Shown here: piece by piece, positions 271 through 40,813 of the stretch
Layout of the letters: each line of letters begins with the position of its first letter
Numbering within the stretch: the first letter of the stretch is position 1
Virus record (IMG/VR): IMGVR_UViG_2671180984_000033
Length of the DNA stretch: 41,368 bases
Origin: a virus
Taxonomy: Duplodnaviria; Heunggongvirae; Uroviricota; Caudoviricetes
Direction: 5' to 3' (one strand)
Made by a program: the position numbers and the translations under genes
Notes under the pieces: generated by a model
The model's input: only the letters and a program-made list of their open reading frames with translations
What the model was told of the DNA's origin: nothing
Database searches by the model: none

Positions 271-475
271 TTACCGTTAAATCATTTTAAAATCAGTAAG
301 TTGTATCGAGTTTGTATGCTTTACTGTCATTAACTTACTGTATGTTGATCCAGTGTATTTAACCTTGATAAACTCAGTCCAGCAACACAAAACCGCAACA
401 CATTGCATTTTGTCCCGTAGAAAAGACTTGTATGTGTGAGCTTGTTTTCTGCGCCTACGCAGATAAGGATTGAGA

Positions 476-1873
476 ATGCCGCGCACTGTAACACATAATC
501 CGGATAGCCCCAATAATGACGATGTTTTAGCCGCATCTGAAAAATGGGACGCCTGTAAACCCCCCTATACCAGCGCACACATGAAAATCTGTGTTGCTGC
601 CGCCAAAATCATCCTCGCTGCTTCCGGCGTGGCTCGCCGTTCCAAATACGAAAAAGAGAACTATCTCCGTATCGATTTCAGCAAAGCCGGTAAGGTTACA
701 TTTTACGCCGAGTTTCCAAAAAAGATGGGCCTCAAGGGTAAAAAGCTCGGCGAGTGGCCGGAGCTCGCTATCCAGCTGGCGCGCGAAAAAGCACTAGGTA
801 TGGCTGACGGTGGACTGCGGGCAGAGTCCGTACATGCAGCGCTGGAAATGTACCGGGATGACCTCAAAGCCAAAGTAGCCCGTCAGAAGCTGAGCCCGGA
901 CAGTTTCACAACCTACGGGGTGCGTATCGACCGGATTAAATCAACGTTCGGCGAGCGCGAGGTGTTCAGCGACGTAACATACAGTCGGCTGGTGGAAGTG
1001 CTGGACGAGTGGATCGCCACTCGCTCGAACAATAACGCCCTGGAGTTGTTTGCCGAGCTCCGTCGGTTCTGGAAGTTCTGCGCACCTACTCTTTGCAACG
1101 GCCGCAATGTTGCCGCCAGTCTGCCAGATGATTATGTTTCCTCCCGCGTACAGAAACCTACCCCCACACGGCTTTTTACCGATATTGAATCAATCGCCCG
1201 ACTCTGGCTCAATGTTGCTGCCTGCACCTCTGTACACCAGAAGAATGCTGTTCGCTTCATGATCATCACTGGTGTTCGTCCGATTAATGTCCATAACCTG
1301 CGCTGGGACTACGTTCACGAGGAGGCTGGTGAAATTGTTTATCCGGAAGGGGTTATCGGCATGCGAGGGGCTATGAAAACACAAAAGGCTTTCCGCCTGC
1401 CGATAACGCCTGAGATCCGGCGGATTATCGACGAGCAGAAAGCCTGGCGTGATTCAGTTCCTGAGTGCAACAGGGATTATGTATTTTTGCAGCCACGTGA
1501 TCCAATGCAGCCATTTTCAAAACGATCACTGGATAAGCTGGTGAAAACATACAGCCCGGACGGGGCTGTAAAAGGAATAAAACATGATGGGACTGTTAAA
1601 GGGAAAGACGGTGCATTTAATACGATGTGCCGTAAATTCCTTAAGAGCAATGTTATTGCCTTGATGAAGGAAAGAGGCTATTCCCGCTCAGACCGAAGGG
1701 AAATCAGCCTCCTTTGCCTTCACCACTCCAGCAAGTCAGATGACCCGATGGCAGAACATTACGACTTTTCTGATGAGATTTTACAGGAAGAGATTGCGTT
1801 GAAGCGCGAAGCTTTCGAGGCTCACGAGCGGAGCATACTTGCGCAGGTGGCATTGCTACGGCGGCGAGGTTAA
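476..1873 (+). CDS. Tyrosine-type phage integrase
   Basis: ORF track 470..1873 begins at TTG; the ATG at 476 has an AAGGA Shine-Dalgarno about 6 nt upstream. C-terminal HH...Y region and its position at the prophage end fit an integrase. Confidence 0.8.
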   Translation: MPRTVTHNPDSPNNDDVLAASEKWDACKPPYTSAHMKICVAAAKIILAASGVARRSKYEKENYLRIDFSKAGKVTFYAEFPKKMGLKGKKLGEWPELAIQLAREKALGMADGGLRAESVHAALEMYRDDLKAKVARQKLSPDSFTTYGVRIDRIKSTFGEREVFSDVTYSRLVEVLDEWIATRSNNNALELFAELRRFWKFCAPTLCNGRNVAASLPDDYVSSRVQKPTPTRLFTDIESIARLWLNVAACTSVHQKNAVRFMIITGVRPINVHNLRWDYVHEEAGEIVYPEGVIGMRGAMKTQKAFRLPITPEIRRIIDEQKAWRDSVPECNRDYVFLQPRDPMQPFSKRSLDKLVKTYSPDGAVKGIKHDGTVKGKDGAFNTMCRKFLKSNVIALMKERGYSRSDRREISLLCLHHSSKSDDPMAEHYDFSDEILQEEIALKREAFEAHERSILAQVALLRRRG

Positions 1874-2070
1874 TACTGGCTGCGACATTTTTGAATAAAA
1901 GCGTCGACATTTCGGCGCTCATAACGAACTACTTTTGCACTGAAACGAATTGGTGCCAGGATAGCCCGATGACGATGCTTAATATTCCACTCACATAGCG
2001 TTTTCTGTGTAATACCTAACTTTTGGCATACTTCATCCGGGGTGAGTAAATCGTCGGGTTTCTCGCTCAT
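1870..2070 (-). CDS. AlpA-like helix-turn-helix protein (putative excisionase or regulator)
   Basis: 66-aa ORF, LTPDEVCQKLGITQKTLCEW resembles AlpA/Xis-type HTH; last gene of the leftward operon, next to int. Confidence 0.6.
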   Translation of the reverse strand: MSEKPDDLLTPDEVCQKLGITQKTLCEWNIKHRHRAILAPIRFSAKVVRYERRNVDAFIQKCRSQY

Positions 2071-3458
2071 GCTATACCTCTCTTTTTCATGGCATCGAGC
2101 AGGATGTCCTGCACTGTTCGTTTTGAGTTGCGCCGCTCCATCACCATTTCGTCCATAGTGTCGGCAGCAATAATGTGGTGAATAAATACCGGACGATTGT
2201 GTCCGGCCTGTATCTGTCTGGTTGGGCCGATACGTTCAATAATTTGCTGATATTGCTCCAGGTCCCACCAGTGTGAGAAAAATACCAGTATATTTCCGCC
2301 GTCCTGCATGTTCAGACCGTGGCCCGCGCTGGCTGGGTGTGCAAAGAGAACAGGAATCTTTCCGGAATTCCAGTCACGTAGTGTCTGTGGATCCTGGTCG
2401 AGGTGACGACCGCGAGGAAATGCTTTAAGCAAGCGTTCAAGATCGTGTTTCCAGTGATAAGCAACCAGCACAGGTGCGCCAGCTGCTTCGGTCAGTATGC
2501 TGTCCAGCGCCTGTAGTTTGGTGTCATGCAGTTCTGACCAACTTCCGGTGTCATCTGTGTATACTGCGCCGCTGGCGATTTGCAGACACTTCAGTGTCTT
2601 TGCCGCGGCGTTCGGTGCTTCGATGCCTTCGCCATTCAGCTCGAGGTACATTTCCTTTTCCATTTCACGATACTGCTGACGGGCCTTCGGCGGCATATCC
2701 ACGCGGATTACGTTATGGATGGGGTCTTTGATATCGAACCAGTCGGCCGCATCCAGCGAGAGGGTCACATCGGCTAACGCTCGCTGTATTTCACCCTGTG
2801 AGTGAGCAAAAGGCTCCAGTTTGGTCCAGCTCTGCCCCGGAAACTGTATCGATTTGAACCAGCGTGAGGTAAACGCGCCGTAAGTGCGCCCGAGACGTTG
2901 CCCCTGGTCCACAAACCACGATTGTCCCCACAAATCTACCAGGCCGTTCGGTGCTGGCGTACCGGTGAGATTTATCCAGCGCCGGACATACTTGTGCGCC
3001 ACTTTGCCCAGCGCCGCCGCGCGCTTACCACCACCTCGCAGCCGGAAGGATTTTAGCCGGGTGCTTTCATCTGGAATGACAGTACCGAACGGCCATCGTT
3101 CTCCCAATTCTTCAACCAGCCAGACAAGGTTATCGTAGTTGATTGTGAACACGCTCGCGTTGCTGTTCGCCAGCGCTGTAGAGCGCGCTTTGGCGTTACC
3201 GATGATCGGCTGTACCTCAATATTACGCAGATGCCCCCATTTAACAGCTTCATCAGGCCAAGTGCTTGCTGCAACGCGTAGCGGCGCGAGGACCAGCGCG
3301 GGGCGTGTTTCTGCTCCAGCCATGAAAAGATCTTCCAGCGTGGTGAGTGTCGCTACGGTTTTACCCATCCCCATCCCTGCCCAGATGTTGCCGCGCAGGG
3401 GCTCGATTTGATGATTGATGATGAGATCTTGGTAGGGACGTGGTTTAAAAGTTATCAT
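2067..3458 (-). CDS. SNF2/DEAD-like ATP-dependent helicase
   Basis: N-terminal PRPYQ motif and Walker A GMGMGKT; 463 aa. Confidence 0.7.
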   Translation of the reverse strand: MITFKPRPYQDLIINHQIEPLRGNIWAGMGMGKTVATLTTLEDLFMAGAETRPALVLAPLRVAASTWPDEAVKWGHLRNIEVQPIIGNAKARSTALANSNASVFTINYDNLVWLVEELGERWPFGTVIPDESTRLKSFRLRGGGKRAAALGKVAHKYVRRWINLTGTPAPNGLVDLWGQSWFVDQGQRLGRTYGAFTSRWFKSIQFPGQSWTKLEPFAHSQGEIQRALADVTLSLDAADWFDIKDPIHNVIRVDMPPKARQQYREMEKEMYLELNGEGIEAPNAAAKTLKCLQIASGAVYTDDTGSWSELHDTKLQALDSILTEAAGAPVLVAYHWKHDLERLLKAFPRGRHLDQDPQTLRDWNSGKIPVLFAHPASAGHGLNMQDGGNILVFFSHWWDLEQYQQIIERIGPTRQIQAGHNRPVFIHHIIAADTMDEMVMERRNSKRTVQDILLDAMKKRGIA

Positions 3459-3481
3459 GAAGAAAATCCCTGATTAGAAAG

Positions 3482-4084
3482 GTGCTCTTGAACATCATGA
3501 ATGTAAAAGATTTATCAATTACAACGGTTCTCTTGGCCGCCCTTTATTTTATGGCTTTTTCTTTTTACAAAGGGTACAGCTCATTTTATGGATTCCCTGT
3601 AAGTTTTATTTCTATTGGGATTGAGGAAATAGTTAAATTTTCTGTTATTGCATTAGGACTTTTGTGCACCTTAGTCGCTTTGCTGCATATTGATACTGAA
3701 GAGAAGAATATTCCATGGTGGGTGTATTTATTTTTCTTCATTTTGGCCTCTTTGCTTTCATACTGGACAATGTATTTATATGGCGGTAGCTCATACCTTT
3801 ATGAAAAATCCATAAGGGATGTGGCTACCCAAGCAATACTGTTGGGATTTATTAGCCCTATCAGTGTCAGGGCAGTATCTGTTTTTATTAGGAATGAATT
3901 TAGAATAAAAAACAAAACTCATGGGGTTATGCTTTTTATATCTATAGCAATGCTTCCTTCAGTCCTTGGGTGGGCATGGGCATACTTATCAGATGAGCCT
4001 CTTTTTTATTCTAAAAAATATGATGCTTATATTATCGAAAGCTATAACGGAAAATTTGTCTTGGGGAACTGTAAAAAAAAATAG
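3482..4084 (+). CDS. Multi-pass membrane protein of unknown function (accessory gene)
   Basis: About 200 aa with several hydrophobic segments; visibly AT-rich island on the opposite strand to its neighbours. The likely ATG start is at 3497 (track start 3482 is GTG). Confidence 0.5.
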   Translation: MLLNIMNVKDLSITTVLLAALYFMAFSFYKGYSSFYGFPVSFISIGIEEIVKFSVIALGLLCTLVALLHIDTEEKNIPWWVYLFFFILASLLSYWTMYLYGGSSYLYEKSIRDVATQAILLGFISPISVRAVSVFIRNEFRIKNKTHGVMLFISIAMLPSVLGWAWAYLSDEPLFYSKKYDAYIIESYNGKFVLGNCKKK

Positions 4085-4213
4085 CTCTGAATTTATGAGT
4101 GTCGAAGGAATTGAGGGGAAATTAATTCCTGTAAGCATAAAAGAAACACAACAACTAAAAGTATGTTTTTTAAAAGCTTCTAAGCTCAAGAAAAATCGCT
4201 CAGAATGATTGTC

Positions 4214-4510
4214 TCACAATATCCCCTCTAAATTTTTGCTATCCAGTACTACCACGGTAAAGCCTAGCTTTCGCAGACGTTCATGCTCGCGCAACTGGTC
4301 AGGCCGTGGTGGCTTGCCGGGAGATTTACATTCAACGAAAACGAGACGGCCGCCGGGTAGCAGAACAATGCGATCTGGTACCGAGCGGCGACCAGGTGAT
4401 ATGAACTTAAAGGCGACCCCACCAGCCTTTTTCACTTCGGCGACGAGATGCTTCTCGATTAGGTTTTCACGTTCATAGGACATCTGAATCCCACTCTTCA
4501 AAAAGCACAT
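4214..4510 (-). CDS. VRR-NUC domain nuclease
   Basis: 98-aa ORF with the D...E.K-type core (VVLDSKN, FVECKSPGK) typical of phage VRR-NUC proteins. Confidence 0.65.
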   Translation of the reverse strand: MCFLKSGIQMSYERENLIEKHLVAEVKKAGGVAFKFISPGRRSVPDRIVLLPGGRLVFVECKSPGKPPRPDQLREHERLRKLGFTVVVLDSKNLEGIL

Positions 4511-4772
4511 TCAATTCCAGTTTCTCTGCCAACGCGTTTTCTGCACGTGCGCCGGCAGAGTACTCCCACTCTTTGAGCATATAAATCGTATCGGCACAGC
4601 GAAGCATTGCGAGGCAGATGTCCATGTACTGAGCCTGTGTCAAACTATTGGGTAAAGTTGCGGGGTTAAGCACAACATATCCCTTGTCCGTTAGCCTCTT
4701 TGCTGCGGAATGAAAGGCCGGGCGGTTAAATTGCTCGTAACCGCTCATTGGCCCGGCAACGTAAACGATCAT
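4473..4772 (-). CDS. DUF4406 / nucleoside 2-deoxyribosyltransferase-like protein
   Basis: 99 aa, N-terminal MIVYVAGPMSG motif as recalled for this family; overlaps neighbours in an operon. Confidence 0.45.
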   Translation of the reverse strand: MIVYVAGPMSGYEQFNRPAFHSAAKRLTDKGYVVLNPATLPNSLTQAQYMDICLAMLRCADTIYMLKEWEYSAGARAENALAEKLELNVLFEEWDSDVL

Positions 4773-4984
4773 TCTTCGACCGCCTTACGCTTTTCACGCA
4801 TATTCTGCATCAGGCAAAAATCAGATCTGCGTTCACTCCATTCCTGATTCAGTTCGTGATGTGATTCGCGGTTGGCTTTTGCCCAGACCTCCGCTGCCCG
4901 GTCATATTCGCCGGATTGTTCAAGTCGCAAAGCTTCCCTTGCAGCCCTGTAATAAAGTGGATTGTCCCGGTATTTAAATGACAT
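4769..4984 (-). CDS. Hypothetical small phage protein
   Basis: 71-aa ORF tightly packed between the polymerase and DUF4406-like genes. Confidence 0.4.
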   Translation of the reverse strand: MSFKYRDNPLYYRAAREALRLEQSGEYDRAAEVWAKANRESHHELNQEWSERRSDFCLMQNMREKRKAVEE

Positions 4985-4989
4985 AGGAG

Positions 4990-7053
4990 TTAATCCTTAC
5001 GGTAGTGGTACGCCTCAAAACCGCCAGCGTTCAGTGGGATATCGGGCGCCCATTCGGGGTTAGTGGAGAGAAGTGCGGAAAGCGCTTTATCGTTGAAATC
5101 TTCTGTGTCAGGTGCTTCGGTGATCACCTCGTCGTGTACCGTCAGCACAATGCTGTAACCGGCATCTTCGATAAGCGGCATGTTTCCGGCCAGAATGTCG
5201 CGGGCGGCCGCCTGGGTGATGTTCTCCACCAGCTTTCCGCCGTAGGTTTTGAGTCGTTGCCATTTACGCGAATAAGAGTTAACCCCCATGTAGGTGATAT
5301 TCCCTTTTTCGATAACCGGAGACGGGTAGCATACAGCGCGTCCGGATGGTAGCTGTATGCGCAGCCACGCGCCATCGCGGCGGATTTTAAGATAACCGCA
5401 ATACAATGTTTTTTGCGGTGTGGCGATTGCAGTGCGGACGGTGCGCTCCAGTTCGTACCAGAAATCACAGGTCGCGGGATGCGCCCGGCGCCAGAGACGT
5501 TTAAGTGAGTCGCAGGCGATAAATACCCGTTCAGAAAGCCCGTAGGTTGACTTGCGTTTAACCGATTCGTCGTACCAGCTTTTCGCCTCGCGGATAACAT
5601 CGCGGGGAATGTTTGGTAGTGCGGCGTTCGCCAGCTCGTCGAGATCGAGACCGTAAACCAGTGCAAAAGTGATGAAGGCCGACACACCACCACCATAACC
5701 CAGACCGAGTTCCATGACTTTACCGATCTGACGCATGTGTTTATCAACATCATCTGGTGCAATATCGAAAGCTTTTGCATACGCCAGTTTATATAAGTCC
5801 GGACCCGTTCCGGCGTCGTACTCTCTGAATGCATTCAGTTTCCATTCTTCTCCTGCCAGCCATGCCAGCATACGGCCTTCAATGTTCGACAAGTCACTTA
5901 CCACCAGTTTTTTGCCTGTTGGCGCGATAATGCAGCCACGTAACGCTGAACTGGTTAGTTCCATGATATTGTCAAACAGCAGGTCTGCACATCCGGCTTT
6001 CAGTGCTTCGATGCCTTCGTCTATTTGTTCCTGTTTTAGTGAAGGGCGGGGAAGATTCTGGGGCTGGAATAGCCGTCCGGCCCAACGACCGGTACGTGAC
6101 GCCCCGCAGAACTGTAGCGTACCGCGTAAGCGCCCGTCGTGGCTTACGCCTTTCATCAGTGCCTTGTATTTACTGGTGCTGGTAGTACTGGCCTGCAGTC
6201 GGATAGCCAGCAGTTCTTTCACGGCAGATGGTAAATCGGGGTCGGCAATACGACGTTCCAGAGTACTGCGTTGCATGTCTGGTAGCTCCACACCGTAGGA
6301 TTCAACAATGTGCTTAATCAACGCGTCTCGTTGTGTGGCTGCCTGCACTTCGCCATCAGTCATTTCCTGTGTACGCTTTGCCAGGCGCTTTTGCTCCTGG
6401 TCTACCGCTTCGATCGCAGCGCGCGCGAGTTGCATGTCCATGCAGACGCCCCGGTCGTTGATCTGCTGATCACGATGCCAGAGCGCCAGCTCTGTCCCCT
6501 GATAATTCCACTTCGGCAGACGTTTATAGACTTCGCGCATTGCCTCGATATCCAGTCCGGCGTAAGCAACAAAGCGCCGCCATTCTTCCGGGTGGGTTTT
6601 GCTGGTGGCACGGCGCAGTTTGCTGTTTTTCGGGCGGGGCTTACAGAACAGCTGGATCAGCGCTTTACCTTCTTTGTCCTTCGCTTTGTCTTGCGGGACG
6701 CCGAGTATTTCGCAGAGTTCCCCCAGAGACCCCGGGAGACCGTGCGCCAGCGCCTGCACCATTGTGTCGCGCCAACGTTCGACTGGCGGTGCCAGGCGCG
6801 GCATTGCATAACGCAGGACGGTGCGGTCGAAGTGAGAGTTATGAAAATAAAGCAGGGTTTCAGGGTCTGCGATTGCTTCGTATAAGCCGTGTGGAATACC
6901 ACCACCGGCAGTGATATCCCACACGTTTACTGGCCCGTCGTTGATAGCCCATGCGAAAAGCATCACTTCAACGCCTTCGGCATACGCATGGGTACCGTTC
7001 GTAATAGGGATTTCGCAATAGGTTTCCAGGTCGCCCCATAGTATATTGGACAT
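4990..7053 (-). CDS. Family A DNA polymerase (phage polA-like)
   Basis: 687 aa; contains LTVHDEV (motif C-like) and an N-terminal exonuclease-like region. Confidence 0.8.
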
Positions 7054-7114
7054 AAAATATCCTCATATGGTATATGGTTAAATGCTAGATATCATGAATT
7101 AAAGGAGACAACTA

Positions 7115-7804
7115 ATGACTGTGGGTAATAAGAGACAGCCTAATGGATTACCTGAATATTATTGTCACCGTGGTAACGACATAAAAGATGCGATAGTTCG
7201 GGATTTTATTATTCAGCCTGTTGCACACCTGAAACTTATTACTGGACAAACTAAAACCAGTTATTCCGGTTATCCGTTAACCGATCAGTACTATTGTTTT
7301 TCATTTAAAAAACGCTCTGATGAAAATTGTACAGGGGCTTTTTTCTGTGGTAGAGATGTTGCAAAGGATTTCATTCGGCGTATCGGTTGTACAGAGCTGC
7401 CGTTATTTAATCCTATGAAATCGGATACCAGTGCAGCAATAGAACGTTCCGGTTCTGGCTCAGGTAGTTCTGGTATTACTGTCAAGCCAAATGCTGACAA
7501 AAAGCTATTTATAGACGCAGCTCGTCTGTTAATGACGCTGTGGGATTCAACAAGTAAGGGACAAACCCCACTGGCGTCGGTTCTTAATGAAGCAATTTCT
7601 GGTGGTATAGATAAACCTCCAGAAATTAGACATGTAGTGGCGGTTAATACAATGTTGGGTAACACAAAAAATACTTTAACTGGTTTGCTGGATAAAGCAA
7701 GAGCGAAGTATCCTGATGTGTTATTCAGAGATTTTGATTTCACGCCTCTTAACGAGATTGTAAAACGTTCAAAATCATATAATAAGCATCCCCCTTGTTA
7801 TTGA
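7115..7804 (+). CDS. Two-domain Cys-rich protein of unknown function (accessory gene)
   Basis: 229 aa; AAGGAG Shine-Dalgarno 8 nt before the ATG; N-terminal domain with CH...C...C...C, a SGSGSGSSG linker, then a C-terminal domain; opposite strand to the replication operon. Confidence 0.5.
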   Translation: MTVGNKRQPNGLPEYYCHRGNDIKDAIVRDFIIQPVAHLKLITGQTKTSYSGYPLTDQYYCFSFKKRSDENCTGAFFCGRDVAKDFIRRIGCTELPLFNPMKSDTSAAIERSGSGSGSSGITVKPNADKKLFIDAARLLMTLWDSTSKGQTPLASVLNEAISGGIDKPPEIRHVVAVNTMLGNTKNTLTGLLDKARAKYPDVLFRDFDFTPLNEIVKRSKSYNKHPPCY

Positions 7805-8469
7805 GTATCAGACACTGTATTGGTAGGAAGGCCTATCATTTCATTTAATGTCTCTCGATGTACTGCTGGTGCTAAAGGGACTGGCGGTGCGTCTGTTGGA
7901 AGCAGTTCTTTAGCTTCGGGCCATACATCCAGTAATTGTTTTACTGTCCGAACTTTATTTAGAGCCGCGCTGACGTTCTGTATGATTTCGGTTTCATCAC
8001 TTTTAATTTGTGTGTAGAGAGCATCAAAGCTATAAAACTCCGTTACCAGAGGATCTTCGCCAAGTAGAGTAAATTCTGCAGGTGTTATTTTATTAATATG
8101 CTCGGGGGCTCCTGATTCATAACCTCTGTAGTTGCCATTGAAATAAATGTTTGCTCTGGCTCCAGCCAGATTGAGATATATGCAGCAATCTTTTCGAATT
8201 AAAGAACTATTGTTTTTTAATGCTTCGGGGACTTTTGATACCAGTGTTTCTATTTTTTTTATATTTTTTAATATTTCAGCTTCTTTCTCTACGCCCCCGA
8301 TAGCTGCAAGCCGAACACGTTCGGCCCATTCAACACGAGCAGCTCGTAGTGCTGATTTACGTTTGGGGATACCCGCTTTCTCAAGTGCGTTATTGATGAT
8401 TTGAGTTTTAAGGTGATTAGTTAATACGGGCTGTGACATTATTCTTTCCCTCATGAGATACCCCAGCAC
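7798..8469 (-). CDS. Hypothetical phage protein
   Basis: ORF in the leftward operon; track start is GTG, and an internal ATG (MSQPV..., near 8439) has a better AGGGAAAG Shine-Dalgarno. Confidence 0.5.
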   Translation of the reverse strand: MLGYLMRERIMSQPVLTNHLKTQIINNALEKAGIPKRKSALRAARVEWAERVRLAAIGGVEKEAEILKNIKKIETLVSKVPEALKNNSSLIRKDCCIYLNLAGARANIYFNGNYRGYESGAPEHINKITPAEFTLLGEDPLVTEFYSFDALYTQIKSDETEIIQNVSAALNKVRTVKQLLDVWPEAKELLPTDAPPVPLAPAVHRETLNEMIGLPTNTVSDTQ

Positions 8470-8490
8470 GTAGCTGGGGGATGAATATTT

Positions 8491-9039
8491 TTAAATCAGT
8501 GCTTCAGCATCAGCACCTTCGCTGATATCGTCGAAATCGTCAGCGCTTGCCACTCCGCCGCCAGCGAATGCATCGCCGTCTCGCAGGAACTGGACTCCGC
8601 CGAGTGAGGCATTAATGCGTTTACCGAAATTATTGTCCTGTGCCCAGATATCGATAACGGCGTTTACATAGCACCCTGCATAGGGACGTCCATCAGCCTG
8701 AATTAGTGGCGAACGATCGCGATCAAGAACAGCTGGGCGCGCTTTGTTAGCAGCGTTCAGGAAGAAATTGCCGGGAAAGCCTTCATACTCTGCTTTTTCA
8801 TCACCATCATGCAGGCACAGATTGAGTTTTTTCTCCAGCTGGTTATAAATGGACTCCCACTTCTCCCCCCATTTTTCCTTCGCTACCTGCTTCATAGCTT
8901 TACGGATTTCTTCCAGTTGTGGGTGTTTGGGAGACATTAAAAATACTGCGGAGAAACGCGGATCGCCTTCGCCGTTTACAGTTTTAGCTTCAAACAGAGA
9001 CGGGAAGGCCAGACGAACATTGTTCAGCTTCAGTTTCAT
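8491..9039 (-). CDS. DUF2815-like phage single-strand DNA-binding protein
   Basis: 182 aa with an acidic C-terminal tail (DDFDDISEGADAEALI); sits beside a DUF2800-like gene as in known phage replication modules. Confidence 0.55.
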   Translation of the reverse strand: MKLKLNNVRLAFPSLFEAKTVNGEGDPRFSAVFLMSPKHPQLEEIRKAMKQVAKEKWGEKWESIYNQLEKKLNLCLHDGDEKAEYEGFPGNFFLNAANKARPAVLDRDRSPLIQADGRPYAGCYVNAVIDIWAQDNNFGKRINASLGGVQFLRDGDAFAGGGVASADDFDDISEGADAEALI

Positions 9040-9054
9040 GGGGATTTCCTTAAA

Positions 9055-10356
9055 TCAGATGAGGTCTGCGGTTAGCGTATCGTCGGATACGTCGTCGAAA
9101 TCATTTACAGGGTTGATATTGAGTGCGGGGCGTGGGTCTGACTCGGGAACGACGGTGGGTTTACCATCAGCTCGTGTTATCAGTGCCTCGACTTTTGACC
9201 AACGGCGCGGACTGGCCTTTTTGATAAGTTTTTCGGCTTTTGTGGGACTAATAAGTTTAAAGTCGAATACTTCTTCAGTTTTGTACCTGAACTGGTCCTT
9301 CAGAAGGGCGCGAGCTGCCTCTTCGTCACTCCAGGCCCGGTTACCTTGTTTTTCTGTTACCAGTTTAAACCCCGGTACCGGATGTCCGGCATTGAGTTCA
9401 TTGTGAACCCGGTCCCGTACTGCCTTTAGCCAGGATTCAATAAAGTCGGCCTGGCTATAGATCTCTGCAAGCTGCTCAATGGTTAACAGAGGTACACGTG
9501 CGCTGGCATTGGTGATTATTTCGCTGACAGGCTTTGTCAGATCTTCAAAATCGCTGGCCGCTGTTTGTAAATGCTGCATTTTCTGGGCAGTGCAAATAGC
9601 TTTTGCTTTACAGAAGCGGCACTGTTTTTCTCCAGGTATGAAGTTTTCCAGAGGTAGTGTCTCAATGACTTCGCATTCAGCAATATTGAGAACAAGGATC
9701 GCACTGGTTGCGGCCTTCTGTGCCCGTTCACCGAAAGACTGAAGTTCCTGTACGGTTAACGACCATTCTGAAACGTGGTTGAGCCTTGGCTGGTGAATAA
9801 ATAATCTTACAGTCTCAAAGTCATACAGCATGCTGAATTGTTCGAGCGCACCCAGAGCATACAGTTGTAGTTGCTCATTTTGTTCTGCATCAATGCGGAC
9901 ACCTTTGCCATATTTCAGGTCGTGGATTTGTAATTCGCTACCAGCAATGATTATTCCGTCGGCAGTTCCGAAAGATTCTTCCACACCCGTTATATGTGAG
10001 AAATCAACACGTTGTTCAACCAATAGTTCATTATTCTGTGCAAGAGTCCAGACCGTATCAACATACCGGCCAACGGCTTCGACCATTTCATCATCCACCT
10101 GTGGGCCAGATGTATCATCAGGATTTTCGCGAAGGGGGTATGAGCCGAGAAACATAGAAACATTGCATCCGGCGTAGTGTTCCGGGTGGCTTTGCCTGTT
10201 TCGTAGAACTTTTTCAGCAAGCGCGTGCGCTGCAGTGCCCTCGATTGCAAAAGTTGTTTCTTTATCCGGTTGTGTGGCCTCCAGCGCCAGACTTCCTGGG
10301 CAGCGCATCCATCGATGCGCTGATGATGGAGAAAGTTGTGCATGAACGTCTGGCAT
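9055..10356 (-). CDS. DUF2800-like PD-(D/E)XK nuclease (Cas4-like fold)
   Basis: 433 aa; N-terminal [15 protein letters not shown] signature; cysteine cluster near the C-terminus. Confidence 0.6.
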
Positions 10357-10358
10357 GA

Positions 10359-11261
10359 TTAACCCTCCAGTGCTTTTTCAGCCAGGGTGATTACTTCAGC
10401 GAGATTTTCATCCGTTACTTCACCAAGTTTCCTGGCTCCCTGTTTTTCCAGAATTGCAATAGCTTCTGCCCGGTAACCCCCTTTTGCTAACTGGAGGATC
10501 AACCCTTCAGCTTGTTTGCGTAGTGCCGCGAAATCAATTGTATGGTCATCTTTGGCGTCATTATTCTGGCTGGAATTTGCTGCGTCTCTGCGTGCAAATT
10601 CTTCCTGCAGCTGAAGGTACTCAACACGGTTGATCTCGATATGGCCTTTTTTCAGCATCTCGTTCAACTTGCGTAAGGTGTGGAGTTCACTGGCTGCTGT
10701 GCCGGATACATTTTTGACGTAAAACGGCCCCGTGCGTTCTCCATCCTTGTTACTGGCCTTTTTCGGCTTAACTTCATCACGCCCATCCGCAGGTGCATCA
10801 AGTAGCTGCTCGGCAAAAGCACGTCGCTCGCCGATGGTTGGCAGGTCGTCCCAGAACTTAAGGATGTTACGGGACAGGTCCAGGAGAGCAGGTTTAAGCA
10901 GCGCCCTGGCTCGTTTGACGCCCTGCAATGCGCTGTCGAGAGCATCAATCTGAACAACTCGTTTATCGCCTTCAGCATCACGGTAGGCAACAGCACGTTG
11001 CAGCATGTCTTCTGTGATAGGGGTGGCTACCGGGTAGAAACCAGCCAGTGCGATAACGTCGCTGAACTCCAGATCATCCAGTGTCATTGCCGCTGACATA
11101 TTTTCAGTTTCAGTTGCTGTATCCCGACATTCCTGCACTCGTGAAATCGTGTCAGGATGCATAACAATGCCTGATGCCATTGTGCGGATAAGACGTTCAA
11201 GCAGCGCATTATGTTGTGCCAGAAGTTGATTATTAAGTTCTAGACTGGTTTCTAAACTCAT
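10359..11261 (-). CDS. Hypothetical phage early protein
   Basis: 300-aa ORF in the leftward operon, acidic and helix-rich. Confidence 0.45.
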
Positions 11262-11440
11262 ACTGTGGTCCTCGCTACAAGGAGAATGAAAGTGATGATC
11301 AGACCGAGCGCAGTGGCAACGGCCAGACCGGTCATCAAATCGAAGTTTTTACGGCGATAACGGAGAACATCGCGCCCCGTCAGTCGATGGATGTGTTCAG
11401 GTTTCATCGGTTGTATTCCTTTTTTCATATCGGGGAGCAC
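11258..11440 (-). CDS. Small membrane protein (first gene of the leftward early operon)
   Basis: 60 aa, Arg-rich N-terminal half and one C-terminal hydrophobic helix (LAVATALGLIITFILLV); 4-nt overlap with the next gene. Confidence 0.4.
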   Translation of the reverse strand: MLPDMKKGIQPMKPEHIHRLTGRDVLRYRRKNFDLMTGLAVATALGLIITFILLVARTTV

Positions 11441-11465
11441 GCTGTTGCGAGTGCGCTTTCAGACA

Positions 11466-11492
11466 TAAAAAAGCCCGTCACGTGAGGCGGGC
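11466..11492 (-). terminator. Intrinsic terminator-like hairpin on the minus strand, upstream of the leftward operon
   Basis: Minus-strand GCCCGCC-TCACGTGA-CGGGC followed by TTTTTT. Confidence 0.45.
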
Positions 11493-11631
11493 AAAGACTA
11501 CACACAGCAATTACATGGATATCATCGAGTGCCTGCTTTTAACCACATCAGGCGAGGTGGTTCTCCTTGTACCCCTACAGTGAGAAATCGTCTAATATCT
11601 CTTCACCCCTACAGTTTGAGAGAGATTAGAT

Positions 11632-12201
11632 ATGTCTGAAGAAAAAGGAATTCTTTCCCGGATAACTGAATCGTTATCCGGCGTGGGAGGAGCAATTAAA
11701 AGCGCGGTTGGAGCAGCAAGAGAGATTCAGAATCTGACTGTCGACTATGCAGTTAAAGAGAAGACGCACATCTTACTCGATAAGCTAATGGATGTTCAGA
11801 TGCAGCAAATGTCGCTTCAGGAGCTGCTGATTGCGGCTAAGGAGAAAATTGTTGAACTGGAAAATGAGAAAGTAAAGCAAGAGAACTGGGCCGCTGAAGC
11901 GGCGAGCTATGAACTTTACCAGCCTATGCGGGGTACTCTGGTCTATCGCAGCAAGCTTTCTGCAGATGCTGACCAATCTCCGGTTTATATTTGTCCCAAT
12001 TGCTACGAGCAAAAGAGAAAATCTATATTGCAAGCGGAAGGTCTGGTTACTAAGCCAGGCCTTGGGCGAGCCGTTAATATGGTTTGTTCGTACTGTAGGG
12101 CTTCCTATCTGTTCAACCGAAATGCTTTAGAAGCCCGACTGCCTTCTGAAGATGAAAATCCGGGGAAGGCAATCACGGATTACGATCCTTACAACCAGTA
12201 A
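11632..12201 (+). CDS. Coiled-coil / zinc-ribbon protein of unknown function (accessory gene)
   Basis: 189 aa; ICPNCY...VCSYCRAS pair of CxxC motifs; convergent with the repressor. Confidence 0.5.
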   Translation: MSEEKGILSRITESLSGVGGAIKSAVGAAREIQNLTVDYAVKEKTHILLDKLMDVQMQQMSLQELLIAAKEKIVELENEKVKQENWAAEAASYELYQPMRGTLVYRSKLSADADQSPVYICPNCYEQKRKSILQAEGLVTKPGLGRAVNMVCSYCRASYLFNRNALEARLPSEDENPGKAITDYDPYNQ

Positions 12202-12251
12202 TTTCTTTAAGCATGGGTACCCTTCCGGCCACCCAGAGTTAAAGGAACTAA

Positions 12252-12278
12252 GCGCCCCATCGTCGGGGCGTTTCAACT
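12252..12278 (+). terminator. Putative intrinsic terminator after the zinc-ribbon gene
   Basis: CGCCCC-ATCGTC-GGGGCG hairpin followed by TTTCAACTT. Confidence 0.45.
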
Positions 12279-12520
12279 TGCGTGACTTATCAGTTCGTCG
12301 CGGTGTTGTCCTCTACGCTTACCGTACGCATACGGACTCGGCGCTTACCTCGATCCCATCGGGTGCCATTTCATTTTGCCAGGAGTACTGCGGCTTACCT
12401 GTCACGCGGTTCAGTTTGTTAAAGAGCTGGTATTAAAAAACGCATTAATTATGCGATATCGTATTTATATGCATTATGGGATTTTGTGTCAATACGAAAA
12501 TGAATTATTTTGCAAATAAG

Positions 12521-12547
12521 AAAACCGCCCTTGTGGAGAGCGGTTTG
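12521..12547 (-). terminator. Intrinsic terminator downstream of the repressor gene
   Basis: Minus strand AAACCGC-TCTCCACAAGG-GCGGTTT followed by TCTTATTT. Confidence 0.55.
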
Positions 12548-12576
12548 ATCAGAAGTAAGTTATCAGACTGTAAAGG

Positions 12577-13251
12577 TTAGTACATGCGTAGCGCGGATTT
12601 GGCGATCCCCGCCACGTAATGGATTTTTTCAATGTTTTCGCGTGGTACTCTGACTGGTGGATGATCTTCATTTACAGACATTAGATGGAACAGGCCATCG
12701 CGTTCGAACAAGAAGGTTTTAACCATGACCTCACCGTCCCGGGTAACCACAAGTACTTCATCACCAGGAGTGTAGTCGTGGTTGGGTTCGACGATTACGA
12801 ACTCACCCTCTTTGATTCTAGGCATCATTGAATCACCAACACATTTCAGGGCGTATGCATCTTCATCCTTTGTCGGCCAGTATATGAAACCATCACTGCT
12901 ACCTACTGAATATTGGGTGTCGCTCCAAAGTCCTCCAACGCCTAGCTGAGTGTTTCCCAAAACAGGTACTTTATTAAACCTAAGAGAAATATACGTTTTT
13001 ATACCTGTCGCGTCCTCTTTCTCCATTTCTTGAAGGCTCCTTTCTGCCAGGTCTATTGGTGACACGTGGAAGTAGTCGGCGATCTGCTTTAACGTTGCGT
13101 ATTTCGGATCTTTCACCTCTCCTGATACCAGCCTGTGTAGCGTTGGTTGGTTCAGTTGTAACCGACGTGCCAGCTCAGTTATCGAGCTTATCTTGGCTTT
13201 GTCCATCAGGTACTTGATGTTTTGAGAAAGGATATCGGTAGTATCAATCAT
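12577..13251 (-). CDS. cI-type repressor (HTH plus S24 LexA-like peptidase domain)
   Basis: N-terminal HTH (ITELARRLQLNQPTLHRLVSG) and C-terminal GDSM serine-protease motif; divergent from a cro-like gene. Confidence 0.85.
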   Translation of the reverse strand: MIDTTDILSQNIKYLMDKAKISSITELARRLQLNQPTLHRLVSGEVKDPKYATLKQIADYFHVSPIDLAERSLQEMEKEDATGIKTYISLRFNKVPVLGNTQLGVGGLWSDTQYSVGSSDGFIYWPTKDEDAYALKCVGDSMMPRIKEGEFVIVEPNHDYTPGDEVLVVTRDGEVMVKTFLFERDGLFHLMSVNEDHPPVRVPRENIEKIHYVAGIAKSALRMY

Positions 13252-13392
13252 TTGGATTCATCCATGTTGTATACAGGGACGGTGATTATGCGTTATCGGA
13301 TATTTTAATCCAGGATGATATAGAATTGCCGTATTGCTGAATAATCCGTTTTCGTATAAATTTGCGCTATAGACGAAAGTGGAGACTTAAAT
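13252..13392. promoter_or_regulatory. Divergent immunity promoter/operator region between the repressor and cro-like genes
   Basis: 141-bp AT-rich intergenic region with GGAT/ATCC half-site repeats, TTGCTG and TATAAA hexamers, and a GGAG Shine-Dalgarno before cro. Confidence 0.55.
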
Positions 13393-13593
13393 ATGTCCGG
13401 ACTAACACCACAAGAGATGGTCAAAAGCTTGATTGATTCAGGGTATACCCAAAACCAAATTGCCGAAATTGCAGGCGTGAAGCAGTCTTCTATTAGTCGG
13501 CTTCTCACCGGGGTTCATTCTGACCCTCGCTTTTCTACAGTACGTGCGATAGAAAAGCTTTTTCAGGAAGTGACAGCTAGACAAAAGGCGTAA
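13393..13593 (+). CDS. Cro-like HTH regulator
   Basis: 66 aa with HTH (QNQIAEIAGVKQSSISRL); divergent from the repressor. Confidence 0.7.
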   Translation: MSGLTPQEMVKSLIDSGYTQNQIAEIAGVKQSSISRLLTGVHSDPRFSTVRAIEKLFQEVTARQKA

Positions 13594-13596
13594 CCC

Positions 13597-15858
13597 ATGT
13601 CTGATAACAAACCATGGGGAGCTACGCCCGATGAGTGGTTCCACTTCGATCTGGTGTTGGGGATGACAGACAGGCTTTTACCTGTGGTGTCCAATCCCTG
13701 TGCAGAACTGTCGCCTAATAGCAAGCTGTCTCATAATTTCGGCAAAACCCCCAGTCGCTACAATGGCCAACGTAAGGTTGTTGGTATCCCCGACTGGGCT
13801 AACTATGTTGTTACGGAAAACGATTTTGCCCGGTGGTCGAACGAACCCGATTACGGTATTTGCGTTCGTACTGGCGACGGGGTGGTGGCTCTGGACTGCG
13901 ATATCAATGACGCCGGGATGCAGGAGATCGTACGCAATATTATCCTGTCATGCCTGGGGGAACTTCCGCCACGTCGCTGGCGGGCTGACAGTCATAAATG
14001 CCTGTACCTGATTGCTGTTGATGGCGACTACCGTAAACGTGGTCACCGCCTGGAAGGCGAAAACAAACAAATAGAGCTGCTCGCTAAGGGCCAGCAGTTT
14101 GTGGCTTGTGGTACCCATCCGGCAGGCGAACGTATTCAGTGGGACTGCGGTCTGCCCGGCGAACCTCTGAAAATTACATCTGAACAGCTCGAAAGCCTGT
14201 GGCAGCGTCTGGCGGATAACTTACCCGTGAAAGACAGCTATACCGCAGGTGCAGGACGTCAGCGTGATCTTTCCTGTGTTGATCCTTCCGCGACAGATGA
14301 TGTCGCCGACTGGCTTGACGCGAACGGGTGGACTCTGTCAGTCAGCTCTGATGGTTCCCGCAATCTGAAACCGTTTCGGGATGAGTCAGAATACAGCAAC
14401 GGTTGCAGCGAAACATCCATTAAGTATTTCCCAAAAGGGACGGGGGGATTTGAACAGGGACATTTTAAAAGCATGCACAACACCGATGCGGGGCTTACTG
14501 ATGCCGACTGGCTGGAAGGCTACGGCTATACGCAATCCCTGTTCGAAGATCTCACGGTGGTTGAAGATGGCGATAAGCCTGAATTTACCGATATTAATAC
14601 AGATATGACAGCTCATTTTCTGGAACGCTTTATCTACGTCATCGAGGGTGACCAGGTATGTGATCTTAGCCGACCGCCATATCAGTGCATGATGGATATG
14701 AAGTCGTTCAAAAACCTGATGGCGCCTTACCAGTTCCCGCCAGAAGGGAAAGGGCAACCAACTCCCGCAACCAAACGGTGGATAGAGCATCGGCATAAGA
14801 AGATTGCTGAGACGACAGGCTATAAGCCCGGTGCGGGACGTATTATCGAGCGTTTCGACGGGCGGTTTGAGATAAACGAATTTTATATGCCTGAGCATCC
14901 ACGTACAGCGGATACAAGTAAGGTGTCCACGTTCCTTAATCATATGGCGTATCTGGTACCTGATGCCTGGCAGCGCGAGTTTTTCATCGCCCGTCTGGGG
15001 TGGATGGTTCAGCGTCCGGAGCGTCGATGCCCGATTTCTATTCTGCATGTGGCTACCGCACATGGTACGGGCAGAGGATGGGTCAGCCAGTTAATGGAGC
15101 GCGTGCTTGGTCCGTGGAACTGTGCTCGTACTCGCATGAAGATCCTGTGCGATAACCAGTTCCATGACTATCTGTACAATACGCTTCTATGCACCATTGA
15201 CGAGGTGCGCGAAAATGATAAGCGGTATGAGGTGAACGATAAGATCCGTGACGTGCTGACAGAACCACGGTTTGAAGTGAACCGCAAATATGGCAGCAAA
15301 AAAACGATGGATATATACACCGGCTTTCTGTTCTACACCAACCACTTTGATGCGCTGGCGCTGCCAGAGGAAGACCGACGTATCGCTGTGCTGGGGGGCC
15401 CTGACTTCGCCGCAACTGAAGAGCATTACGCCAGCCTGTACGGTGCGCTAAGCGACAGCGACTTTATCGCCCAGGTGTACTGGTATCTGATGGGCGTTGA
15501 CCTGTCTCGCTTTAACTGGCAGCGCGCCCCCGAGACGAAAGAACGCCTTCTGATGATTGAAAGCAATAAGAGCGATGTGGAGGCTGCTCTTATTGAAATC
15601 CTGGATAATCCGCCTGTGCCAGCAATGACTTATCAACAAATTGTTAACGCAATACTGGCAGAAGCAGGAATGGATGTAGAAATTAACCAGAAGCATATTA
15701 CTCGCATTTTGAAAGAAAGAACAAAGCGGGAACCCGTACGCGTAAAAATTGACGGGTTTGTATATAGGATTTGGATTCTTGTAAAAAATAACGATTTCAG
15801 CAACGAAGAATTGCGCGAAATATATAAATCTTGCGAAATTTTGCAATCTGGATTGTAA
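13597..15858 (+). CDS. Putative replication primase (primase-polymerase-like N-terminal domain)
   Basis: 753 aa; VVALDCDIND (DxD) and ACGTHPAG resemble archaeo-eukaryotic primase motifs; immediately followed by the inverted-repeat array. No canonical Walker A seen. Confidence 0.55.
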   Translation: MSDNKPWGATPDEWFHFDLVLGMTDRLLPVVSNPCAELSPNSKLSHNFGKTPSRYNGQRKVVGIPDWANYVVTENDFARWSNEPDYGICVRTGDGVVALDCDINDAGMQEIVRNIILSCLGELPPRRWRADSHKCLYLIAVDGDYRKRGHRLEGENKQIELLAKGQQFVACGTHPAGERIQWDCGLPGEPLKITSEQLESLWQRLADNLPVKDSYTAGAGRQRDLSCVDPSATDDVADWLDANGWTLSVSSDGSRNLKPFRDESEYSNGCSETSIKYFPKGTGGFEQGHFKSMHNTDAGLTDADWLEGYGYTQSLFEDLTVVEDGDKPEFTDINTDMTAHFLERFIYVIEGDQVCDLSRPPYQCMMDMKSFKNLMAPYQFPPEGKGQPTPATKRWIEHRHKKIAETTGYKPGAGRIIERFDGRFEINEFYMPEHPRTADTSKVSTFLNHMAYLVPDAWQREFFIARLGWMVQRPERRCPISILHVATAHGTGRGWVSQLMERVLGPWNCARTRMKILCDNQFHDYLYNTLLCTIDEVRENDKRYEVNDKIRDVLTEPRFEVNRKYGSKKTMDIYTGFLFYTNHFDALALPEEDRRIAVLGGPDFAATEEHYASLYGALSDSDFIAQVYWYLMGVDLSRFNWQRAPETKERLLMIESNKSDVEAALIEILDNPPVPAMTYQQIVNAILAEAGMDVEINQKHITRILKERTKREPVRVKIDGFVYRIWILVKNNDFSNEELREIYKSCEILQSGL

Positions 15859-15860
15859 AA

Positions 15861-16128
15861 AGGTGACGGCTAGGTGACGGCAAAACGCTTAAGCGTCACC
15901 TTAAAAAGTATATATAAAACAATGGGAAATGTGCTAAAGGTGACAGGTGACGGCAGAATTTAAAACTATATACGCGAGAGTGTGTATTTTAGGTATTATA
16001 CGATCGCTTATATATAGAGAACTAAAATCAACCGTCACCTGTCACCTAAAACATCTTCAGGCCTTATATGGCGCGCTTTGCAGCAGGTGACGGATATGTA
16101 ATTACGCGTCACCTAGCCGTCACCCGGA
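15861..16128. repeat. Nested inverted-repeat array of GGTGAC(G/A)G boxes around an AT-rich core (putative origin of replication)
   Basis: Eleven GGTGAC copies: forward-oriented at about 15862, 15873, 15939 and 15946, reverse-oriented at about 16032, 16039, 16107 and 16118, plus singles near 15893 and 16086, flanking an AT-rich centre (about 15960-16025). Confidence 0.6.
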
Positions 16129-40251: not shown

Positions 40252-40441
40252 TCTCAATCAGAATGGGTTCGCCCTTCTCGTTAACAGATATTTCCATTCC
40301 TTCAGGGATTTCAGATGCAGTAAAAAACCAGTTATCTTCTGGTAATTCAACAGCCCCGGTCACGTCATGAAGACCGGGGATTACTTCAGTCAAAGTAACA
40401 GGATTAAACAGGCGCACAATAAACCCTCCAGGAAAAAGCAT
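40220..40441 (-). CDS. Alternative tail fibre assembly protein in inverted orientation (short)
   Basis: 73-aa minus-strand ORF downstream of the alternative fibre C-terminus, inside the invertible segment. Confidence 0.45.
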   Translation of the reverse strand: MLFPGGFIVRLFNPVTLTEVIPGLHDVTGAVELPEDNWFFTASEIPEGMEISVNEKGEPILIEIKPSQEELAR

Positions 40442-40787
40442 TTATTGATGGTGTTCCGTCGTACATCTGGCAGCGGACATAAAAACCGGTATTAGTGACC
40501 TGGTCATCCACGATCATTGAAACGTGAACGTTATTAGATGTGCCCCCATAATCCGTTCCTATTCTTTCCGCTATGCTGATAAAACGTGAAAGCTTAGGTA
40601 GCGCAATAGGATAAACGACTTTAGCCAGTCCATTATTATTAGAACCACCCGTCCCAAAGACTTCTATTGCACCATCTGACCAGCGTATCCATGCACCATT
40701 GGCATTAGCTCCTCGCTGAATGACATATCTGGCTTCTCCCAAACCAACGTTTATGAAAATGCAGAAATAACGAGCAAATGGCATCAT
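40404..40787 (-). CDS. Alternative tail fibre C-terminal variable segment (inverted, currently not fused)
   Basis: Minus-strand ORF carrying GLGE at the crossover-like site, matching ENLGLGE in the plus-strand fibre; residues upstream of the site are probably not a real N-terminus. Confidence 0.55.
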   Translation of the reverse strand: MMPFARYFCIFINVGLGEARYVIQRGANANGAWIRWSDGAIEVFGTGGSNNNGLAKVVYPIALPKLSRFISIAERIGTDYGGTSNNVHVSMIVDDQVTNTGFYVRCQMYDGTPSINAFSWRVYCAPV

Positions 40788-40813
40788 TCCTGCTTTTGTC
40801 AGGGAGATCTACC

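Follow-up and report, generated by a model that had tools for sequence, protein, structure and literature searches.

The 41,368-nucleotide stretch of viral DNA analyzed here, IMG/VR record IMGVR_UViG_2671180984_000033 (hereafter the window, meaning the whole stretch), is an Escherichia coli prophage whose replication genes lie on both sides of a lambdoid immunity region. These genes probably constitute a single replication-recombination module of the Enc34/Chi-like kind, centered on a family-A DNA polymerase (PolA) of the Leu762 class and deployed as two divergent early units around the CI/Cro switch. The case is built on gene content, the integrity of catalytic motifs, gene order across relatives, and an array of short repeats (iterons) whose sequence covaries with the C-terminal half of the primase-helicase. 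That array marks a probable replication origin immediately after the primase-helicase gene.

A probable single module in two divergent units

[quoted passage not shown] The rightward unit carries a 753-aa primase-helicase (13597-15858, plus strand), which joins a Prim-Pol domain to DUF5906 (D5-type SF3 helicase) and lies 3.2 kb from the DUF2800 gene in divergent orientation; it is followed by 315 nt of intergenic DNA, then a 96-aa ORF and the gene for the Q antiterminator. Scans of the Pfam, PHROGs, PADLOC and NCBIfam profile libraries, supplemented by PDB sequence searches, assign the core genes as follows:

2067-3458, minus strand: SNF2-family (SF2) helicase (PF00176 1.4e-11; phrog_62 1.1e-156)
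4214-4510 (PGAP start 4483), minus strand: VRR-NUC nuclease (phrog_93 1.4e-31; PF08774 20.7 bits, slightly below the cut-off of 23.8)
4990-7053, minus strand: family-A DNA polymerase with 3'-5' exonuclease, Leu762 type, 687 aa (PF00476 2.7e-14; phrog_17 1.3e-126)
8491-9039, minus strand: gp2.5/Enc34-type single-stranded-DNA-binding (annealing) protein, DUF2815 (PF10991 2.4e-44; phrog_112; Enc34 SSB structure 5odj 4.6e-16)
9055-10356, minus strand: DUF2800 PD-(D/E)XK (Cas4/RecB-like) exonuclease (PF10926 2.7e-109; PF12705 5.3e-10; phrog_69)
13597-14582, plus strand: primase-helicase, N-terminal AEP (Prim-Pol) part, up to a recombination joint (PF09250 3.1e-7, 31.4 bits versus a cut-off of 22.8)
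14583-15858, plus strand: primase-helicase, C-terminal D5/NrS-1-type SF3 helicase plus C-terminal domain, the probable origin binder (P-loop HGTGRGW, R493)

The catalytic motifs of these proteins are largely in place. The SNF2 helicase displays both its Walker A (GMGKT) and its DEST box, and the VRR-NUC protein a D..ExK motif (D46 ... E59-x-K61). When the polymerase is aligned with four distant relatives (from Xenorhabdus, a Chi-like phage, a Dhillonvirus and a Streptococcus phage), the exonuclease residues of Exo I (D8, E10) and Exo III (Y164, D168) are invariant, as are D387 of motif A, R441/K445/Y453 of motif B and H640-D641-E642 of motif C; L449 occupies the Klenow F762 position, which places the enzyme in the Leu762 class. 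The alignment thus indicates a full-length polymerase and not a truncated remnant. The DUF2800 gene stands directly upstream of the SSB gene on the same strand, with 15 nt between them, and a PDB sequence search with its product gave no match. In the primase part, the AEP residues D100-x-D102, E160 and H174 are kept in 26 of 27 aligned homologues, including that of the Chi-like phage SAP012 (the exception is P0056), while the canonical motif-II His is not conserved and a conserved Lys (K134) stands at that place. A preliminary description of this DNA, made without database searches, had named these core genes; all are present where it put them, look intact and are backed by profile searches, so that its domain assignments, including the primase call for the 753-aa protein, and its emphasis on a mosaic character were correct.

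The same description held that the window carries two separate sets of replication functions. The position of the genes on opposite sides of the immunity region stands, their separateness does not: the two blocks are complementary parts of one known module, with nothing duplicated. The right block supplies initiator, primase and helicase, the left block polymerase, SSB, two nucleases and SNF2 (an SF2 remodeler). Earlier work has recognized much of this grouping, as an Enc34 module of primase, polymerase, VRR-NUC, helicase and SSB (PMC5686142), as a named duf2800-gp2.5-polA module (PMC8093625), and, in the study of Nasko et al., as RecB-like and SNF2-like genes neighboring the Leu762 group I PolA genes (PMC6302109). 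A related polymerase is held by 1731 phage records.

To place the layout among relatives, 80 IMG/VR loci with polymerases 41-99% identical were surveyed, their ORFs being searched with the module proteins of five phages. The order DUF2800, SSB, PolA, VRR-NUC, SNF2 is collinear wherever its members are detected (in 65, 69, 80, 68 and 71 of the loci, respectively). A primase-helicase turned up in 50 loci, upstream and divergent in 38, upstream and co-oriented in 11 and downstream in one; in 24 of the other 30 loci, either the upstream DNA is shorter than 4 kb or DUF2800 went undetected. A gene for a CI-like repressor lies between the blocks in 22 of the 38 divergent loci. In the virulent Chi-like phage SAP012, exonuclease, SSB, polymerase, VRR-NUC and helicase genes share one strand and the primase gene diverges from their upstream end, with no immunity region; the Dhillonvirus Gluttony has the same layout and likewise no immunity region. 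In Streptococcus phage Javan392 the same families form one collinear operon. Staphylococcus phiSa2wa also carries all of them on a single strand, where small genes in a block separate PolA from a VirE-type primase-helicase. The split divergent layout is thus the commonest in related loci, and the immunity switch occupies the divergence point in temperate members.

These patterns bear on the preliminary idea of two separate, potentially redundant systems joined by mosaic recombination, one of them foreign to the lambdoid backbone. The placement of the genes on opposite strands to either side of the immunity region may be cited in its favor, as may the exchange of the right cassette (immunity, helicase half and origin) as a unit among relatives. 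However, polymerase gene, primase, SSB and origin each occur only once; profile scans found no lambda O-type initiator or P-type DnaB loader family between cro and Q, and the iterons are intergenic; and the same pairing and orientation recur in phages with no immunity region and in 38 of the 50 surveyed loci where a primase-helicase was detected. The comparative data contradict this idea, which we regard as very improbable.

The predicted origin and the probable seat of its specificity

The repeats that the preliminary description had marked beside the primase-like gene prove to be a real array:

15861-16124, no strand assigned: probable replication origin, ten GGTGAC(R)G iterons, five forward and five reverse, with dyad symmetry

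All are intergenic, within the 315 nt directly after the primase-helicase gene. In the order F F R ... F F, center, R R ... F R R (F, forward; R, reverse), these 8-9-mers form three dyad-related groups about a center of 78 nt (15954-16031) with 28% GC. Of the 11 matches to GGTGACRG in the window, eight lie in 15862-16124, against about two expected in the window as a whole, and none of 100 shuffles reached 11.

The same layout is found at the same place in six related loci with other iteron words (L005, L007, L010, L032, L034 and L044) and in one with the same word (L089). The words include TACTCAACC in L005 and AGGTTGCAG in the Xenorhabdus locus L007, and, in viral contigs, CAACTCC, ACGAGCA, GTGGTAAC and GGAACCAC. 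More generally, in 21 of 46 loci no other 400-nt window has as many copies of any one 8-mer as the 400 nt after the primase-helicase gene; chance would give about one such locus, and all 21 are of the divergent type.

Natural chimeras suggest which part of the protein goes with the repeat. A recombination joint can be placed at 14582 (about codon 329), between the AEP and helicase parts, where nucleotide homology to the VapE-type loci L005 and L006 stops. In L005 and L015, the N-terminal half is 97-100% identical to that of the window, the C-terminal half is of an unrelated VapE type and the iteron is GTTGAGTA. The converse is seen in L089, whose N-terminal half is 61% and C-terminal half 98% identical to the window, with the same AGGTGACG iteron in the same layout; seven more loci have over 93% N-terminal identity to L089, unrelated C-termini and different iterons. 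Judged from these sequences, it is the C-terminal half of the primase-helicase, and not the primase half, with which the iteron word varies, and the helicase half moves in one cassette with the iterons and the small ORF that comes next. It is therefore probable, on the correlative testimony of the chimeras, that the C-terminal part recognizes the iterons.

A parallel might be drawn with the origins of SaPIs, the pathogenicity islands of Staphylococcus aureus, in which iterons immediately after rep surround an AT-rich center, take opposite orientations on its two sides and are read by a C-terminal winged helix, with Rep acting as a self-loading helicase (PMC9371898). As this anatomy is the one seen here, SaPI Rep offers the best mechanistic model.

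The cassette is swapped within E. coli prophages as well. In E. coli 97-3250, the left islets (3453-4234 and 7081-7824) are 100% identical to those of the window and the left gene order is the same, with a different repressor and a VapE-type primase-helicase on the other side. By this sequence comparison, the cassette that comprises immunity genes, helicase half and origin is traded independently of the polymerase operon, which fits lambdoid-style mosaicism.

An arginine P-loop in the helicase half

The C-terminal half of the primase-helicase models in AlphaFold as an NrS-1/PriRep5/D5-like helicase with a predicted local distance difference test score (pLDDT) of 88, and the model aligns with PriRep5 over 354 residues. 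Its P-loop departs from the canonical form:

aa 490-496, window 15064-15084, plus strand: Arg P-loop GTGRGW; R493 is encoded at 15073-15075

The 753-aa protein does not match the canonical Walker A GxxxxGK[ST]: the segment T-A-H-G-T-G-R493-G has Arg for Lys, Gly for Ser/Thr (as in NrS-1) and lacks the first Gly, while Walker B (CTIDEV) is kept, as is the DRR motif. R493, in the model, belongs to the first helical turn that follows strand 1, which is the place of the Walker A Lys, and HMMER aligns the segment to the GTGKG of NrS-1. The Arg is present in 55 of 55 close homologues and, by a motif scan across helicase cluster representatives at 27-80% identity, in at least 125 of 147, with Lys in only six; Lys is also what NrS-1, SAP012 (GSGKT) and Javan392 have. 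Given that all 55 close homologues and at least 125 of the 147 representatives carry it, the Arg P-loop is no lesion. In most P-loop NTPases, a change from Lys to Arg cripples hydrolysis. Nothing specific on helicases with a natural Arg-type Walker A came up in a literature search.

One might suppose from this that the Arg P-loop, kept throughout a large clade of DUF5906 primase-helicases, marks a mechanistically distinct SF3 initiator, one that, for example, binds nucleotide and melts the origin while hydrolyzing NTP slowly or by another chemistry, so that unwinding at the fork would fall to PolA strand displacement together with SNF2. We think this rather doubtful. The conserved Arg P-loop poses a cheap, testable biochemical question.

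A working model and what weighs against it

From the gene content and order we infer the biochemical activities of the module, the division of labor between its two units and the control of both by CI. Upon derepression, the rightward unit would make Cro and the fused AEP-primase/SF3-helicase, whose C-terminal part would recognize the iterons directly after its own gene. Two helicase rings would probably be loaded, one on each flank of the AT-rich center, and would open it and lay primers, the mode of loading being that of a self-loading initiator-helicase as described for the SaPI Rep/PriRep proteins. From the leftward unit, the proofreading family-A polymerase would extend these primers, and the gp2.5-type SSB would coat, and could anneal, single strands. 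The DUF2800 exonuclease and the SSB together would provide a recombination function like that of lambda Exo/Bet, which could support recombination-dependent replication and concatemer formation, and the VRR-NUC nuclease and SNF2 helicase would process branched intermediates before packaging.

Several observations weigh against a single module that works in this way. The activities are predictions from sequence. In E. coli EPSSH018 (L001, 6399-8463), the polymerase is annotated as a frameshifted pseudogene in a prophage that is otherwise 98% identical. CI control of the leftward unit is presumed, the operator-like match between the two sides being at chance level. With Arg at R493, where the catalytic Lys is expected, the primase-helicase may be no conventional motor. 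Finally, the blocks appear to reassort, and no tight co-adaptation between them is evident from the sequences.

The exchange of the cassette independently of the polymerase operon leaves room for another view, in which recombination-dependent or late replication is the main task of the polymerase block. Here the tasks would be split by stage: the rightward primase-helicase and origin would recruit the host Pol III replisome for replication from the origin, the leftward block would act mainly in recombination, repair or late replication, and the two would be semi-independent. Consistent with such a split, the blocks reassort freely between near-identical prophages, the DUF2800 and SSB genes hold the position of lambda exo/bet, with gp2.5 classed as a family of single-strand annealing proteins (PMC8093625), and profile scans of the region identified no processivity factor. 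The frameshifted polymerase might be read in the same sense, but a lesion in a single prophage may be mere decay. Against the split, this is the single polymerase annotated in the regions inspected of virulent Chi-like and Dhillonvirus phages, where it shares a module with the primase-helicase, and the adjacency of the blocks is kept in 50 of 56 loci with enough flanking DNA. We therefore consider a division by stage unlikely and retain the single module as the favored reading.

Exchangeable cargo in the leftward operon

The replication operon contains three fixed cargo slots (3453-4234, 4484-4870 and 7081-8490), whose contents vary among near-identical prophages. Two ORFs of opposite orientation break up the leftward string of genes, and the intergenic islets that hold them have 34% and 39% GC, against 48-54% for core genes. 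The preliminary list had included the DUF4406 gene and lacked the other cargo genes:

3497-4084, plus strand: counter-oriented accessory ORF (195 aa), 34% GC, with no match in Pfam, PHROGs, PADLOC or NCBIfam
4473-4772, minus strand: DUF4406 (nucleoside 2-deoxyribosyltransferase-like) protein (PF14359 3.1e-33; phrog_355)
4769-4984, minus strand: ANR-family small regulator (NF033650 1e-19, 70 bits versus a cut-off of 32; weak PerC similarity, PF06069 4.6e-4)
7115-7804, plus strand: counter-oriented accessory ORF (229 aa), 39% GC, with a precomputed PF27729 label
7798-8439, minus strand: Nmad5-family protein (profile library scans)

The segment 3453-4234 is without counterpart in close relatives, and in E. 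coli EPSSH018 the slot of the 195-aa ORF is taken by a protein with a BstA C-terminal domain; kinship between the two was considered, and on comparison they are unrelated. The 229-aa ORF is a real conserved protein, with homologues 57-73% identical in Dickeya, Enterobacter, Morganella and Providencia, though it has no match in the local Pfam, PHROGs, PADLOC or NCBIfam libraries, and its slot too is variable among relatives. DUF4406 is found in only five of the 80 related loci; elsewhere its slot holds DUF7446 (L005) or a CAP12/Pycsar-type TIR protein (phage 611R5), the latter having no sequence similarity to DUF4406 on comparison. A PDB sequence search with DUF4406 gave no match, and a literature search on DUF5906 and DUF4406 nothing specific. 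The ANR regulator gene sits between those for the polymerase and DUF4406. Proteins of the ANR family antagonize AraC-type virulence regulators, and this gene could be a host-regulating moron.

Nmad5 is present in two of the 80 related loci, and in prophages with 96-99% identical polymerases its slot holds AntA or Bro-N, or no Nmad5. The protein yields a confident model of long helical hairpins and a three-stranded sheet, which has no enzyme-like structural neighbor. Its best-conserved part is C-terminal, W-P-E-A-K-E-L-L-P ... N-x-x-I-G-L-P, the latter portion of which falls in a low-confidence tail of the model, and this suggests that the conserved stretch might be a protein-binding peptide and not a catalytic site.

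The preliminary description had ventured that DUF4406 beside the polymerase hints at nucleotide metabolism or DNA modification. Extended to its neighbor, the idea would be that the module copies chemically modified DNA, DUF4406 and Nmad5 making or handling a non-canonical nucleotide that the dedicated polymerase incorporates. DUF4406 does belong to a nucleoside deoxyribosyltransferase-like family and keeps the Glu of the S-x-G-x-x-x-E segment, and Nmad5 takes its name from an association with nucleotide modification genes. Furthermore, a point mutation in nmad5 lets Dhillonviruses escape the Tmn defense; in the same study, the only functional one on Nmad5, however, deletion of nmad5 left the phenotype unchanged and no modification was measured (PMC11846954). 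The hint finds no support in the comparison: DUF4406 is missing from most relatives with 96-99% identical polymerases, and such prophages lack one or both genes, their slots being filled by AntA, Bro-N, DUF7446 or TIR proteins. Profile scans of 1870-15858 matched no enzyme family for base modification or for the synthesis of non-canonical nucleotides, as known from the 5-hmdU-derived, 7-deazaguanine and aminoadenine systems, and the model for DpoZ, the polymerase of dZ systems, scored 18.3 bits against a cut-off of 500. Taken with the absence of any enzyme-like neighbor for Nmad5, this leaves a modified-DNA module scarcely credible.

DUF4406, Nmad5, the ANR regulator and the two counter-oriented ORFs are instead exchangeable cargo in fixed slots and not part of the core. 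The slots look like defense or counter-defense islets, and their cargo is probably conflict-related.

Immunity region, neighboring genes and prophage setting

The remaining genes of the two early units, with the integrase gene, are as follows:

470-1873, plus strand: integrase gene, adjoining the HTH_17 gene at the far end of the leftward operon
1870-2070, minus strand: small HTH_17 protein (Xis/AlpA-like), last leftward gene (PF12728 E=1.3e-5; a helix-turn-helix regulator according to PGAP)
10359-11261, minus strand: 300-aa protein, second leftward gene (phrog_6784 1.5e-179)
11258-11440, minus strand: small ORF (49 aa in the PGAP version), first leftward gene (phrog_11981 3e-36; annotated in relatives)
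12577-13251, minus strand: CI-type repressor, HTH plus S24 peptidase (PF00717 2.6e-18; PF13443 3.7e-12)
13393-13593, plus strand: Cro-type HTH regulator, first rightward gene (PF01381 1.2e-9; phrog_6831)

The 300-aa protein, whose gene holds this second place in the enterobacterial temperate group, occurs in 17 of the 80 related loci, all of them close relatives; it has no PDB sequence match, and the profile libraries give only a PHROG family of unknown function. The same four libraries returned only PHROG families of unknown function for the 189-aa and 94-aa ORFs. In the related loci L005 and L006 (6309-6827), a gene for an HNH/NUMOD4 homing endonuclease lies between the 300-aa gene and DUF2800, and in Javan392 an HNH gene stands immediately before the polymerase gene.

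Just beyond the cI terminator, on the minus strand, there is a promoter-like TTGACA-17-TATAAA (12484-12456), which is tentatively the leftward promoter PL on its sequence. Beside it, within 12437-12520, lies a perfect 15-nt palindrome, CGCATTAATTATGCG. About 1 kb downstream of the possible PL, ahead of the first left-operon gene, is a terminator-like hairpin (11494-11468); between the two, a plus-strand 189-aa gene (phrog_1244) is antisense to that transcript. A 14-mer with one mismatch is common to 13285 and 12448. CI operators common to both sides were considered on this account and set aside, as the number of such 12-mer matches in 40 random control segments ranged from 0 to 7, which makes the sharing no better than chance.

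Positions 1-261 of the window are the host gene yfhL, followed by the integrase gene, which would place the left attachment site in the yfhL-shoB neighborhood, somewhere from 262 to the start of the integrase gene (470). Three induced phages, vB_EcoM-689R2, vB_EcoM-611R5 and vB_EcoM-606R2, have about 98% DNA identity to the window, and the host of the module is a temperate E. coli myovirus with lambda-like Q and holin. Both replication blocks are contained in one 42.7-kb genome of induced virions (vB_EcoM-611R5 and relatives). The left block was also weighed as an integrated element of its own, an idea dropped because the packaged genomes of the induced phages carry both blocks. Among 5426 complete E. 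coli genomes, 178 (about 3%) match the window, and in 30 of these the match spans at least 80% of the region. At the far end, a gene for a Hin/Pin-type serine invertase (40778-41368; PF00239 1e-51) adjoins an oppositely oriented ORF for a tail-fiber C-terminus (40404-40787); this pair, at 40404-41368, suggests an invertible tail-fiber (host-range) switch like Mu Gin or e14 Pin.

Since the module is widespread, as the 1731 records attest, and already in the literature, the original claim by itself offers little gain, and the prophage family is already known in sequence, from induced virions and from about 3% of the complete E. coli genomes. What the present analysis adds is a precise prediction of the origin for this phage group, with comparative evidence that places origin specificity in the C-terminal half, and a map of the fixed slots in which these prophages carry exchangeable cargo.

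Comparison with known systems

The closest likeness is to the Enc34/Chi-like phages (Casjensviridae) and Dhillonvirus, which have the same order of DUF2800, DUF2815 SSB, PolA, VRR-NUC and SNF2, with an AEP/SF3 primase-helicase divergent upstream; their polymerases are 30-43% identical to the one described here and have Leu at the 762 position. In contrast to the Enc34/Chi-like phages, the present phage is a temperate myovirus with lambda-like Q and holin, a CI/Cro switch stands at the divergence point, extra cargo slots break the left operon, and the P-loop has Arg where SAP012 has GSGKT.

The SaPI Rep/PriRep5 proteins (PDB 7ola, 7pds; PMC9371898) likewise have an origin right after their gene, opposed iterons flanking an AT-rich center and specificity in the C-terminal part. 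They differ in that sequence identity is only 12% and that we deal here with a phage and not a satellite, with 8-9-mer iterons in three dyad-related groups, a phage-encoded partner polymerase and an Arg P-loop.

In the deep-sea vent phage NrS-1, the AEP domain itself serves as the replicative polymerase, whereas here a separate family-A polymerase is encoded. The P-loop of the NrS-1 primase-polymerase (PDB 6k9c, C-terminal helicase region) has Lys and that of the present protein Arg.

Finally, the early region of lambda shows a similar plan, with divergent early operons flanking cI/cro, a nuclease and an annealing protein leftward, and an initiator with an iteron origin rightward, followed by Q and the lysis genes. 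The origin lies inside the initiator gene in lambda and after it here, and lambda borrows DnaB, DnaG and Pol III, whereas the present phage brings its own polymerase, primase and helicase. Among lambdoid phages the initiator-origin cassette is exchanged, just as it is among the relatives described here.

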